A DNA stretch of 64,000 nt from NCBI GenBank assembly GCA_951406725.2, contig OX597831.1:30566001-30630000 (forward strand), in the 5' to 3' direction. This DNA comes from Octopus vulgaris. Its lineage: Eukaryota. The notes under the pieces were generated by a model, which was not told where the DNA came from, did not search any database, and saw nothing but the letters and a program-made list of their open reading frames with translations. Made by a program: the position numbers and the translations under genes. Each line of letters starts with the position of its first letter. The stretch's first letter is position 1. Below, piece after piece: positions 2,715 through 61,091 of this stretch.

Positions 2715-3175
2715 CATTTCACTAGTTCAAGCCAGCAGACTGTGACCAAGCCAGACCCGCCAGCTATTCGTTTTCCTATACAAGTGTCTGCCCATTCGCC
2801 TGACTATCCCTGTTTTTTCAATAGATTAGTATTCCTATCAGTTTAGCATTCGTCTGATATGGTTGTTGTATCTAAAAGATGCTGCTATAAATAGACGTGG
2901 AAAGATTTCAAGTGGAGTGAAGTATTACGAAAAACACAGACATACGTGTTTGTACGAAATATTTTATCATTCATTCCGAAAACTAAACTGATAAATCTCA
3001 ACCCAGTCCAACCCCTTCTGTTATAATTCCGATATTTATCTGAAGAAACGTCATAGATTGAAGAATCCGTAGGAATGATGCGGCAACATAGCAATAGATA
3101 CAGTCTGAAACATCTTAATAGTCTGCTATTATCAGTAAAAAATCTTTCATTTATAGACACGACAGAGAAAAGCAT
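2715..3175 (-). other. Candidate exon (probably 5' UTR or non-coding) of a minus-strand host gene
   Basis: Strong acceptor ttttcctttatttctgttttcggtgtttttcag|ATG at 3176/3175 with an AG-free zone of about 44 nt; candidate donors CAC|GTATGT (2946/2945) and ATG|GTAAAG (2715/2714); sequence is non-repetitive; no recognisable protein. Confidence 0.35.
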
Positions 3176-22950: not shown

Positions 22951-23009
22951 GTGTGTGTGTGTATTTATATAGGCATCTATATATATATATACACACATAT
23001 ACACATATA

Positions 23010-24101
23010 TATTTGTTTTTTCGAAAGCTATAATGGAAGTGACAAAGGAGCATATTCGGCATATTTTGCTTTATGAGCTCAATAAAGGCAACAACTCAAT
23101 GGAAAATGCGAAACACAATATAGTATATGGGGATTTGTTAATAAGCGTAAGCCAGTGTCAGTGGGGGTTCTAGAAATTCTGAGCCGGAAACTACAGCCTT
23201 GAAGACAAGCCTCGTACTGAAAGATCTGTAGAGCTCGACGAGAACGTCCTGCAAACCCTGCTGGGATAAAAATCTATCGTAACTTTTGAGGAACTAGTGC
23301 AGAAGCTTGGATTTGGTCATTCAACCATTCATCGATACCTGCGTGCAATCGGAAAAATCAGTAAATTGAGTCAATGTGTTCCATACAAACTTTCCGAGCC
23401 TAATCGTGCGCAGAGAGTGAATGTGTGCTCTTCTTTGCTGTCACGTCTGATGAATGAGTCTTTTTGAACCGAATAGTGACTGGTGACGAAAAATGGGTTC
23501 TCTATAAAAATGTCAAGCGCCGAGGACAATGGGTAGGAAACGGGGGAAGTATTCACCCACGTAAGGTGTTGTCATCTGTATGATGGGATATGAAAAGTTT
23601 AGTTCACATTGAACTTTTCACCCAAACGGTAACAAAGGAGATCTAGCGAGGGCAGCTTGAGCAGCTTAAGTCAGCACTAACCGTAAAACGACCATATTTG
23701 GTTTCAAGTCGAAGGCTGTTTTTCCATCAGAATAATGCTCGGCCACACACAGCGAGGATGACATTCCAAAGACTGGAACAGTTTGAATGGGAAACGATGC
23801 TCCACCCACCGTATTCACTGGACATTGCCCATCTGATTATCATTTATTCCGCTGTCTTCAAAATCATTTGGAGGGAATTAATTTGAATTCTTTAGACGAG
23901 ATCGGAACAGTAGTGGAGGAATATTTTTCGTCACGGACAAGTGAATTTAGAAAGAGGGGCATTGCAAGTCTTCCAGATAGATAGAAGAGCCTTGTAGAAA
24001 ATGAAGGAGTGTATATTTTAGATTTAAAAAGAAATTTTTTTATCATAATTTATAAAAATAAAAGTATAAAAAGACTGCATTATTTATGGGATGACCCAGT
24101 A
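23010..24101 (+). mobile_element. Mariner transposon (DD34D), decayed; right terminal inverted repeat (TIR) present, left TIR lost
   Basis: Right end ..gcattatttatgggatgacccag followed by TA (24100-24101); contains a transposase pseudogene. Confidence 0.9.
23033..24026 (+). pseudogene. Mariner transposase pseudogene
   Basis: [15 protein letters not shown].., CVPYKL (WVPHEL), IVTGDEKWVLY, HPRKVL, HQNNARPH, HPPYSLDIA/PSDYHLF, GIASLPDR; multiple stops and frameshifts. Confidence 0.93.
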
Positions 24102-30827: not shown

Positions 30828-31334
30828 GCACACACACACATATACGTATTTATATATATATATGTATACATGTACACATATATACGTATATATATATATA
30901 TATATATACATACTACACACACACACACAGAAAGATATGTACATGGACACATGCACACACACACACAATCACATGCAGATTTATACTGAAAGGAAATTAG
31001 AAGGACATTACAATGAAAACGTCAAGTCCCAACACAATAGACACCGTATAGTCACTTGGGATGTAAACCAAAACTGATACAGTATCATGGAAGACAATTG
31101 TCTCGCGAGGGTGAAAGATTCATCGAAGTTACAAGAATGAAGATAGTTATTAGATATTAGCTTCCATTTTATTCACTTCTTTTAGACTTTTCTCCAACTA
31201 CAAAAATCATGACAGAAGTAAATAGACACCCCATAACGCATCGTTTTATGTTTGTATTAGCTTGTAAAGGTTCACATTTTTTTTTATTAATTGACAATTT
31301 TATGTTTCAGGTTCTATATGTGACTGTATAATCC

Positions 31335-32895
31335 TGCCATGTACAAAAGAAGCCTTGGAACTGTCTGAATTTCAAAGAGCCCGTATTGTGGGTCATTCTG
31401 AAGGGTAAAATCGCAGAAGACCTTGGGATCCCGCTTTCTATAGTTAATAGAGGGATTGTGCAATTTACCAGAGATGTGAAGGAAGCCACTTCTTCGACCA
31501 GCCAACATCAAGTGGAGGAAAGCTTATGCCGGTGAGATGGGGGAGAAGCCACTAGCATTTTGGGACAGTGTCATATTCTCTGATGAGACCAGATTTGCTG
31601 TATTTTCTGAAGGTGGTCGAGTGTGGAGCTGGAGACTGTGATCAAGAATTTGATGGAAAAAGGTTGCAGCCAACAACGAAACACGGTAGCTATTCTGTGA
31701 TGGTCTGGGGAGCAATTTGTAGCAACGGTTGATCAGAGCTGGTGGAGTGTGAGGGAAACATTAACTCAGATAAATATGTGCCTATATTGCAAAAAGAACT
31801 CCTTCCAATCTTCTGTGGTGAAATGATTAAAGAGGACTTTTAATTTATGGAAGATGGGGTTCCTTGTCACACGGCTAAAATGACCCTAGATTTCTTGGAT
31901 GAGAGTGATATTAAAAATTTTCCAAGGCCAGGCCAGTCGCGAGATATGAACCCTGTTGAACACCTCTGGAACATGATGGAGAGAAGACTTTTTCCTATTG
32001 CGGCGTCTCTTAAGTTATATTATTTATTTAGGCTTTCCTCTGAGTAAGGGAAAATATAATGATTTATCGTCACTTATACTAAAGTGTTATCATTGTATCT
32101 TTAACCCTAACTGCAGTTGTAACGTCATATAGACATATACGCATGGAACGCTAACTCAATGACCATGTATGTTGAATATTTTAATCGTGTCCTTTAAACC
32201 GCTAAAAGAAACATAAAACAAAGATTACAGAAATGCATATTTATCTATGCTCAGTTGAAAAACAAACGAAGAGAAACATTTTCTTTTTAATTATTTATTT
32301 ATATAAATATAACATTTTATATTTATTTACAAGAAGAAAGATAACTTAGTCGTGAAGAAAAACGACTTTAAATTCCTTAGCTAATTTCTTTTTCTATCTA
32401 ATACGTTAACCAACAAATCAAAATAGATTTGTGATTAACGTAGACATGGCATAAAAATTTACCGATTTCTCCAAAAGAGTGAGTGTCGTGGAGTTGAATG
32501 ACTACCGAACGAACACTAAAGTCTCTCCTCAAATCCAGGGTTTTTATAACTGCTCAACCTGATCAAAAAGAATCGAAATTCAGGACAAACATTCTTTTCG
32601 AAACTTTTAGAATCTTTATATGAGCAGTTACACTAACCAATGGGAAAAGAACGAAAATGACAATTCCTCGGCAAAGACATTACGTCATATTGCCAATTCG
32701 CGCCACATTTCAAAATGGCTAAAATGGCTATTGCTACAACTTCATAAAAAGAACACGAAAACATCTTCAAAGCCAGATCTTTTGAGATTATTGCATGAAA
32801 CTTGGCAAGCAATTCCGCAAGAGAATATTCGTCATCTGATCATTAACACGCCTAATAGGATCCTTACAATTAGGAATGCAAAGGTGATGTATACT
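31335..32895 (+). pseudogene. Tc1 transposase pseudogene, split at 31990/32743
   Basis: ELSEFQRARIVG..KIAEDLGIPLSIV (helix-turn-helix), FWDSVIFSDETRF, VMVWGAI, FMEDGVPCHTAK, PGQSRDMNPVEHLW, then LLHETWQAIPQENIRHLIINTPNR. Confidence 0.9.
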
Positions 32896-58378: not shown

Positions 58379-58450
58379 ACTTACCTTATTAGGATAACAG
58401 GATAATAAAATGAACTTACCTGTAAGAAAAATTAGAAGAAGACATTAGAT
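58379..58450 (-). promoter_or_regulatory. Candidate recursive splice site (AG|GTAAGT) with a 35-nt cryptic exon and a downstream donor
   Basis: Minus strand reads atCTAATgtcttcttCTAATttttcttaCAG|GTAAGTtcattttattatcctgttatcctaatAAG|GTAAGT; junctions at 58420/58419 and 58385/58384. Confidence 0.65.
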
Positions 58451-61091
58451 ATTTGGGTCATTTTATATTGCACATTATTTTACATTACATGAGTCATTCT
58501 ATATTGCATATTATTTACATTTATATTGCACATTATTTACATACATACCACCTGTTTCCCAATACCTTTAAGCGCTGTGTAAAACACAGACATCGAGGGG
58601 CTGTTTTGTTGGTAAGGAGAAGCGTACGTTTCTAGAAATACAGTATAATTCTCCTTCTTATCACACTCCTTGTTATCATTCATTGTAAATAGGTGAACTG
58701 ACCTATGTGTTATAGGAAAATAGATGGCAATTGTCTTGTTCGTAAAGACTTTGATCACATAACTGCTAGCTGTGTCCTCATCTTGGACTCAAAATCAATA
58801 ATAATATAAGTTGTAAGTCATATCCAGTATAAGCTAAAATGATCTGACTCCAGCTTCTTATGTCACTATTATTAAGAGCTTTATAGTAGCTTTATAAAGT
58901 CACCGAACCTGCTATAAATAGCAGCTAATTTTTCTTGAAATAATACCGTACAATTGATACAAAACTATTAGAAATTGCGTAAGGACGTTCTGCGCATATA
59001 TGTGTATGCGTATGTATGTATGTGTGTGTGTATGTGTGAGTGTGAGTGTGAATGTAAGTATGTATGTCAATGAGTAGCACGTTGTGATCTAAGGGAATTG
59101 TGCTGCTAACTAACGAGTTTTGTACTACGTGAAGAAAGTATTGAAACGCCAGTAGCCTCATGGGAGCCCCGCGGTTAAATAGATATACATTCACCCTTTA
59201 TACCTCTTGATTTTATGATTTTATATGTATTTATGTATGTATGTATGCATATATATCTGGCGAACAACTTTGATCATGTAAATTCTAGCTAAAGCCAGAA
59301 TGTATATATCAGTCATTTTGCAAAGCAGTTTCTACAACGAGAGGTATAACACTTCCATTAACCAACAAACATGGTGAGACATCCTCAAGTTATGTGAACA
59401 TCACATACTATCCCCAGTACATTCTCCATTAAAATCACATCTTCATAAATTTTGTACTTTATTTTTTAAACTCAGTTCTGACTGATAGTGTTATCTTGTT
59501 AGCATGCCTTGTAGGTGCATGCATATTTATAGAGAAGGTAGAACAGTAATGTAATTCAGAATGGCGCTGTAACTACGTCTTTCCGGTCGGTATCTGATGA
59601 TTGCCTTTTTAATCCCTGATGTGCCACTATTCACAGTGACAAATTCGTCGAAGTGAAAATGCAGTTTCAAAATCCAAGGACTGAACTAAATTTTGTTCAA
59701 CGTTATTGCTTTCCTTTTATGGCCTAGTGTGCCTAAGAAGGGCGGTTACTATAACGTAGTACAAGACTATCAAGACCAGTTGAGAAATGATAGAAGCAAC
59801 TGCAAATCATTGGTTACCTTTAAAACGAGAACATGACTCAAATAGTTGCCATAGAATGTGCACCGCTAAGGACAACCATTGGTGAAATGCATGGACATTA
59901 TATGAGAATCCAAACCTTTTTGCATGTCTCTTATTAATACAATAAGCCTAATAATTTTAAACTTAATTAATAACCATAACCTGTTAAGCTAATTAACTCT
60001 GAAGGTTGAAGCAATTAATTAATTAATTAATTAATTGGAATTAGTTGATTAGAATCCACTGATTACAAGTAGTGATCTGTCTCAGAGTATGACAGTTGTG
60101 ATTCTTTTTAATGAGAAGAAAAATTACCAGAAAGTATCGGAATTGAAACATTCAACACATTTCCAACTGCTTGATAGATGTTTATTACTGCTATGTTTGA
60201 AGAACGGAAATTTAGTTTCAACTTTTTCTCATTAGAATATTCTTGCAGCATTCAAATTTCACATTGCAAAGTGTTAACATGGTCAAATTATATCTTTTCT
60301 CTATTTTCCCGTTGAAAAAGATTTGAATGGCGGAGCAGATAAGATGGCAACCAATTAGCCTAGGATTACTGGTTCCAATCGTGTCATTATTGCCGTACAT
60401 CGTCTATGGTCAAGCCACACACACACACACCCACATACACACGTAGTTGTGCATTCAGCTTTATAGCATCTAAAATTGCGTATTAATTCGTCATCGGACA
60501 GTTTCTCTAAATGGCAACGCACTTTCCAGCAATCTTCAAGAGATGTGTGTTCGCGTCCAATACCTGTTTATTGGCAATTTTTTTCCCCCGCTGTGTAAGG
60601 CTTGGTGTAATTTGTTTATATATATTTATATATATAGAAAGGTTCCAAGAAGATTCTCTAAGTACACTGCTTTTTATAACAGAGAGAACTGTAAGCCAAT
60701 GACGTTGATTACTCAATTCCTTTCATTGTCAATCATTTAATTTCGTATTACACTCTGCACTCAACTAACAATTTATTCTGAAGCAGAGGATATTTTGGGT
60801 TCTAAAAACAGGTTACTACTATCGATATGCCTAAGCAACATCCTTGTATGTATATATATATATATATATATATTGCTTTTAATTATTTAAATTCTTCCTG
60901 TGAAGAAGGAACTGGTTTCTAACAAATATACAAAGTTCTATCGTTGGAATCTAGGTAACTGAATCAATGTTACATTTTAAATCCGAAAAAAGTCTTGGGT
61001 AACTTTACTCTTCCGCTTACAAATTATATTTTTAATGTGCGATTTAGCTGGTTGATTTCTTTTTCTGAAAATCTAAGGTTTTGTATATGTA

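Follow-up and report, generated by a model that had tools for sequence, protein, structure and literature searches.

A candidate recursive splice site with a 35-nt cryptic exon in a giant adenylyl cyclase intron of Octopus vulgaris

The host gene and its first coding intron

The window analyzed here (64,000 nt of Octopus vulgaris DNA) was read together with its surroundings, 664 kb in all and free of N, and candidate exons were listed and compared with Pfam, solved structures, and homologues. Minus-strand exons flanking the window match PF16214 and PF00211, the signature of a membrane adenylyl cyclase (AC). Their best match among solved structures is a type 5 cyclase, and the database neighbors of the host protein are named AC type 1 or rutabaga. 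To judge by these names, the host is probably an orthologue-like counterpart of rutabaga, a learning gene of the fly. The AC1/rutabaga-type gene (C18:30889412-30283045) spans more than 600 kb, with its first coding exon 457 kb upstream of the second.

The first of these exons (exon A) carries the likely start codon and ends at C18:30888444 (CAG|gtcagt), and the second (exon B) starts at C18:30431646 (ttacag|CTG). In a snail AC1-like protein, the part corresponding to exon A runs to residue ~195 and the part corresponding to exon B continues from 195 without a gap. Sixteen of the 96 retrieved homologues were inspected; exon-A-like sequence is intact and leads straight into exon B in 10 of them, and the other six begin at or near exon B or carry an unrelated lead-in. 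The homology-based join of exon A to exon B defines a phase 0 intron of 456,797 nt (C18:30888443-30431647), in agreement with the original prediction that the window lies inside a very long minus-strand intron. All three retrieved cephalopod proteins lack exon A and start at or just before exon B, so the join was drawn from gastropod, bivalve, and arthropod homology rather than from a cephalopod transcript. Gene prediction that fails to span the intron is the probable reason why the cephalopod models miss this exon. One database model, labelled Octopus vulgaris, is 100% identical to exon B and opens with an 8-residue leader. The corresponding 8-codon exon (C18:30454116-30454093) lies 170 kb downstream of the site described below and has a weak donor (CAG|GTTTGT); it could be an artefact of prediction or else an internal first exon, use of which would bypass the site. 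Inside the intron, decayed-transposase-like frames and an endonuclease-like retroelement fragment were recognized by eye at window positions 22973-23981 and 31310-32044 and at C18:30494855-30494349.

Anatomy and strength of the candidate site

The features of the site, in window coordinates and read from the sequence unless otherwise stated, are as follows.

1-64000, minus strand: whole window, placed by homology within the first coding intron of the AC1/rutabaga-type adenylyl cyclase; the flanking exons lie outside
58444-58448, minus strand: CTAAT, likely branch point (A at -26 from the junction)
58431-58435, minus strand: second CTAAT, probably too near the AG to act as a branch point
58420-58442, minus strand: pyrimidine tract and CAG acceptor, AG-free for 79 nt upstream (sequence and acceptor score)
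58431-58424, minus strand: TTTTTCTT
58422-58420, minus strand: CAG acceptor
58414-58419, minus strand: first donor, GTAAGT (candidate ratchet-point donor)
58385-58419, minus strand: 35-nt candidate cryptic RS-exon, between the two donor junctions
58379-58384, minus strand: second donor, (AAG|)GTAAGT, closing the candidate cryptic exon at junction 58385/58384

The elements named in the original prediction are all present on the minus strand: two CTAAT motifs, a pyrimidine tract, CAG|GTAAGT at junction 58420/58419, and a second donor, AAG|GTAAGT, exactly 35 nt downstream (58385/58384). Given usual branch distances, the first CTAAT is the plausible branch point because the second is only 13 nt from the junction; the second reads TTAAT in the single contig of run X3 that covers it. 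The further claim that the window holds no comparable site was borne out by a search of both strands, in which just two AGGTAAGT were found, both of them here. The sequence is also unique, as had been proposed. It was left unmasked by self-BLAST and TRF across the 664 kb, and the 661-nt stretch around it gave one full match and one 50-nt match in the 2.8-Gb genome. A repeat origin of the site was rejected on these grounds, the stretch being unmasked and single copy. Upstream of the branch motif, positions 58495-58542 hold a 22-nt short tandem repeat, in or near which contigs of three runs stop, with one loose end at 58462. Four contig runs were consulted, none on record as RNA; they contain no splice joints, and the second donor is uncovered in all of them. 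One contig (X3, depth 2.2) keeps CAG|GTAAGT, and the other three runs do not cover the junction. The X3 contig is ~97% identical throughout and is therefore uninformative on conservation.

Splice sites were scored with rough weight matrices of our own making, and the values are approximate. The site scores 16.7 as a combined acceptor-donor; within the intron, the runner-up among 1,086 sense AGGT positions reaches 12.7 and the top antisense position, of 1,088, reaches 12.6. It thus ranks first among all 2,174 AGGT positions when both strands are taken together, and it is the only strong acceptor-donor on either strand of the 664 kb. The acceptor alone (11.7) is within the span of scores (10.4-14.3) of five real host-gene acceptors. 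The second donor (12.2) is stronger than all seven real host-gene donors scored (6.2-11.1), and donors of that strength occur only four times on the 457-kb sense strand, or ~0.0005 per 60 nt. Because exon A ends in CAG, its splicing to the site would rebuild CAG|GTAAGT, a donor scoring 13.0 vs. 8.8 for exon A's own. The search for additional ratchet points in the intron returned no strong candidate: the next best sense position (12.7) lacks a downstream donor, and the antisense background is equal to it.

At the level of sequence, the site has every property expected of a ratchet point with a cryptic RS-exon. A strong 3' splice site adjoins a 5' splice site (YAG|GTAAGT), a downstream donor closes a short candidate exon (AAG|GTAAGT at +35), the site lies on the sense strand within a long intron as defined by homology, and the end of the upstream exon is predicted to regenerate a usable donor. 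It is a real feature and probably a true recursive splice site.

One detail of the original prediction was not supported. Position 3175 had been suggested as a splice partner for the 35-nt piece, but by homology the next coding exon starts outside the window, ~193 kb from the site, and the acceptor at 3175, with a score of 9.2, is outranked by at least 32 other AGs of the intron. Immediately after this acceptor come ATG and an open frame of 96 codons (3175-2885, minus strand). If 3175 were joined to the 35-nt piece, eight residues would be read before a stop.

Paired acceptor-donor sites across the genome

A genome scan for the motif, proposed with the original prediction as a check, uncovered a class of sites with the expected anatomy. 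Raw counts were only weakly enriched. The loose pattern Y6-N-YAG|GTAAGT has 828 matches vs. 737 for its reversed control. The stricter Y10-N-YAG|GTAAGT has 209 genome matches vs. 96 reversed, and vs. 59 when a purine is placed at -3 (RAG). Expressed as a share of all 22,369 Y10-N-YAG|GT positions, GTAAGT follows in 209 (0.93%), compared with an expected 0.38% from local counts (12/3,130) or 0.6% by composition. Many of the loose matches are therefore chance or repeats, and the signal lies in the paired anatomy. Two interspersed repeat families themselves carry acceptor-GTAAGT and raise the raw counts; such families could seed new sites.

Ninety of the 209 Y10-N-YAG|GTAAGT sites were examined, all from the first 100 listed and including six loci that are repeat copies. 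A donor of at least 7 bits was present at +25 to +84 in 29 of the 90, vs. a mean of 6.2/90 in nine control windows (Fisher P = 8e-11). This peak is confined to the sense strand, the antisense strand having none. CTAAY occurs at -45 to -15 in 14 of the 90 sites, vs. 1-7/90 in six control windows. The cryptic-exon lengths in this set divide 8/10/11 by remainder modulo 3, and no bias to multiples of three was seen in any length set tested.

The pairing was then counted directly as Y6-N-YAG|GTAAGT followed by a downstream donor, with the reversed pattern as control. A second donor AG|GTAAG after 20-50 spacer nt gave 19 matches (this site included, along with two duplicate pairs) vs. 4 reversed; the same donor at 51-80 nt gave 14 vs. 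1, and BG|GTAAG at 20-50 nt gave 22 vs. 2. The total is 55 paired sites vs. 7 reversed (P = 1e-10). When the second donor was moved to 140-170 nt, 3 matches remained vs. 19, and the paired excess peaks 20-80 nt downstream of the first GTAAGT. Replacing the first donor by GTAAG(A/C/G) left 6 matches, three of them from one tandem repeat, against 5 in the control. By composition such donors should be about twice as common as GTAAGT. The pairing needs a perfect first GTAAGT. Base composition was examined in 51 paired sites (17 + 14 + 20, duplicates dropped); the unconstrained positions -24 to -11 are strongly T-rich, and T is found at -6 in 50. The AC1 site is part of this class of at least several dozen octopus sites, and within the class it alone has been placed, by homology, on the sense strand of a giant intron.

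Members of the class tend to share a strand with their neighbors. Among the first 100 listed sites, 14 of the 17 pairs of neighbors less than 700 kb apart are on the same strand, where 2.6 same-strand pairs are expected under uniform placement. In the set of 54 paired sites (one duplicate dropped), all four neighboring pairs share a strand, one of them possibly through local duplication. Same-strand runs were seen at C8:14961411, 15104034, and 15244988 (minus); C3:9636738 and 9754255 (minus); C13:4648747 and 4805407 (plus); and C8:21831926, 22038040, and 22311563 (plus). These runs, ~120-270 kb apart, probably mark other giant introns. Duplicated paired sites at C5:77185879 and 93311007 and at C12:64851937 and 64944753 suggest segmental or tandem gene duplications that retained the motif. 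Around the paired sites, 53 three-kb loci and two 10-kb stretches supplied 387 open frames, the top 150 of which were compared with Pfam; none matched, a result weakly consistent with deep-intron positions.

Recursive splicing as the proposed function

We consider it likely that the site is a ratchet point whose cryptic RS-exon is normally skipped, and that the giant intron, which the site divides into 264,024 and 192,773 nt, is removed in two steps. The evidence for this reading comprises the motif, its uniqueness, its strand, its place between consecutive coding exons, and the anatomy of the class; all of the kinetic steps we infer from flies and vertebrates. As in those organisms, the acceptor and the downstream donor would define the 35-nt piece as an exon, and exon A would be spliced to it once 264 kb had been transcribed. 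The joint between exon A and the site would recreate CAG|GTAAGT, and the regenerated donor would outcompete the downstream AAG|GTAAGT and be spliced to exon B, 193 kb farther on. The 35 nt would depart with the second lariat, leaving no trace in the mRNA. Occasional use of the downstream donor would instead include the 35 nt, introduce a stop, and likely lead to nonsense-mediated decay.

The consequences of inclusion can be read from the flanking exons. As the original prediction had it, the 35 nt would shift the reading frame, since the piece sits between two phase 0 exons. The resulting stop falls 34 nt into exon B and 116 nt before the next junction, a geometry that normally triggers nonsense-mediated decay. 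An ordinary coding microexon was rejected because the 35 nt gives this stop and the homologues run straight through. A coding lead-in was also considered, namely an 83-codon, non-repetitive frame (58788-58540, minus strand) whose GTG|GTATGT donor would connect in phase, across a 129-nt intron, to the 35 nt. The frame had no match in Pfam, the genome, the protein database, or a representative library. It was rejected as coding on the strength of seven replacement vs. three silent changes and a 2-nt deletion in contigs of related organisms, and an X1 contig is unspliced across its GTG|GTATGT donor.

The same geometry would serve an expressed or regulated poison exon, in which sizeable inclusion of the 35 nt either lowers AC levels through decay of the frameshifted message or produces a truncated membrane fragment. 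The near parity of the downstream and regenerated donors (12.2 vs. 13.0) and the position of the stop favor such an exon, and a further observation pointed the same way: frame 0 is stop-free in 15 of the 17 non-duplicate short AG|GTAAG sites vs. 6.3 expected (0 of 20,000 shuffles). The effect was not repeated, however, in 29 other predicted exons (9 vs. 8.8 expected) or in 34 further sites (12 vs. 12.6), two sets that overlap in part, and the openness reflects either chance fluctuation or something particular to the subset whose competing donor is strongest. Moreover, the frame-0 peptide of the 35 nt was found in 0 of 97 proteins, among which the cephalopod proteins lack exon A; the strictness of the class about its first GTAAGT suggests that skipping is selected for; and fly intronic ratchet points are described as skipped in the accessible text of PMC8605326. 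We therefore regard substantial inclusion as unlikely.

Two further explanations were weighed. The site could be a short exon of another minus-strand transcript (a non-coding RNA, or a 5' untranslated exon belonging to a message with an internal promoter), or it could be a decoy that is bound but unspliced. Internal starts are possible in principle, since the Octopus vulgaris database model opens with a short leader inside the intron, and run X1, whose identity as RNA is a guess, contributes a contig immediately upstream of the site; but the leader lies 170 kb downstream with a weak donor, the X1 contig shows no splicing and could derive from DNA, and an ordinary exon has no reason to start with the perfect GTAAGT that the class requires. 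We judge this very improbable. A functionless chance motif in an AT-rich intron is equally hard to credit: the loose counts barely exceed the reversed control and the controls yield 3-4 matches for every 19 of the real pattern, but this leaves ~16 of the 19 paired matches in excess of chance, and the site lies on the sense strand of a giant intron, is preceded by 79 nt without an AG, has its branch motif at a suitable distance, and scores higher than any of the other 2,173 AGGT positions there.

A ratchet point, the favored reading, can be compared with the recursive sites already described. In flies, according to the accessible text of PMC8605326, ratchet points are tandem acceptor-donor sites in long introns, with a cryptic and usually out-of-frame exon of ~50 nt and competition between donors; more than 500 are cited for flies and nine fully suppressed ones for mammals. 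Fly recursive segments measure 9-15 kb and are enriched in first introns in the part of PMC6110457 consulted, and the human introns with saw-tooth sites in the corresponding part of PMC10156609 are ~170-870 kb long, with a median of ~550 kb. The octopus site resembles the Drosophila ratchet points of PMC8605326 in its perfect GTAAGT tandem, short out-of-frame candidate exon, long intron, and membership of a class with many sites per genome. It differs in scale, its predicted segments of 264 and 193 kb contrasting with the 9-15 kb of Drosophila (PMC6110457); close-neighbor sites elsewhere in the octopus genome are likewise ~90-280 kb apart, against the same Drosophila range (PMC6110457). The very long intron and an RS-exon with competing donors recall vertebrate recursive sites (PMC8605326, PMC10156609). 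Unlike mammals, with about nine fully suppressed sites in the text of PMC8605326, the octopus has, under tight patterns, at least ~45 paired sites in excess of the control and a fly-like demand for GTAAGT. The nine supplementary files of PMC6110457 contained no match to the name rutabaga or to a presumed FlyBase id.

The motif has been predicted more widely among invertebrates. In the portion of PMC2773006 consulted, the sense strand of introns longer than 50 kb is enriched 4- to 22-fold in (y)nncag|gtaagt in fly, mosquito, bee, beetle, and sea urchin, and the octopus site shares this motif with the predicted RP-sites. The octopus intron, with one strong site in its 457 kb, falls short of the density of 0.5-2.2 per 100 kb reported there (PMC2773006), the thresholds being different. 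The 13 species of that survey, as given in the same portion (PMC2773006), include no mollusc or other spiralian. A literature search that left most subscription papers beyond its reach found no report of recursive splicing in a mollusc. The mechanism is already known, and this is apparently the first recursive splice site from a mollusc. The longest octopus genes are enriched for neuronal transcripts, as stated in the text consulted of PMC7222433.

A broader proposal can be offered only tentatively. The octopus may use RS-exon-defined recursive splicing genome-wide, with a hundred or more fly-style perfect ratchet points set at vertebrate-scale spacing (100-260 kb) in giant introns, the first such case in a spiralian. 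In rutabaga/AC1, and at some sites that combine a very strong downstream donor with an open first frame, the cryptic exon might have a second role as a regulated switch by which the protein is tuned or truncated.

To date, demonstrations of recursive splicing come from flies and vertebrates, and motif-based predictions from a few further invertebrates. A class of octopus ratchet points with cryptic exons would place this exon-definition mechanism in the third great branch of the bilaterians, and would allow one to ask whether the mechanism is ancestral or arises anew as introns grow. With a motif and abundance like those of the fly and distances like those of vertebrates, the class would also provide a test of the length limit of a single splicing step.
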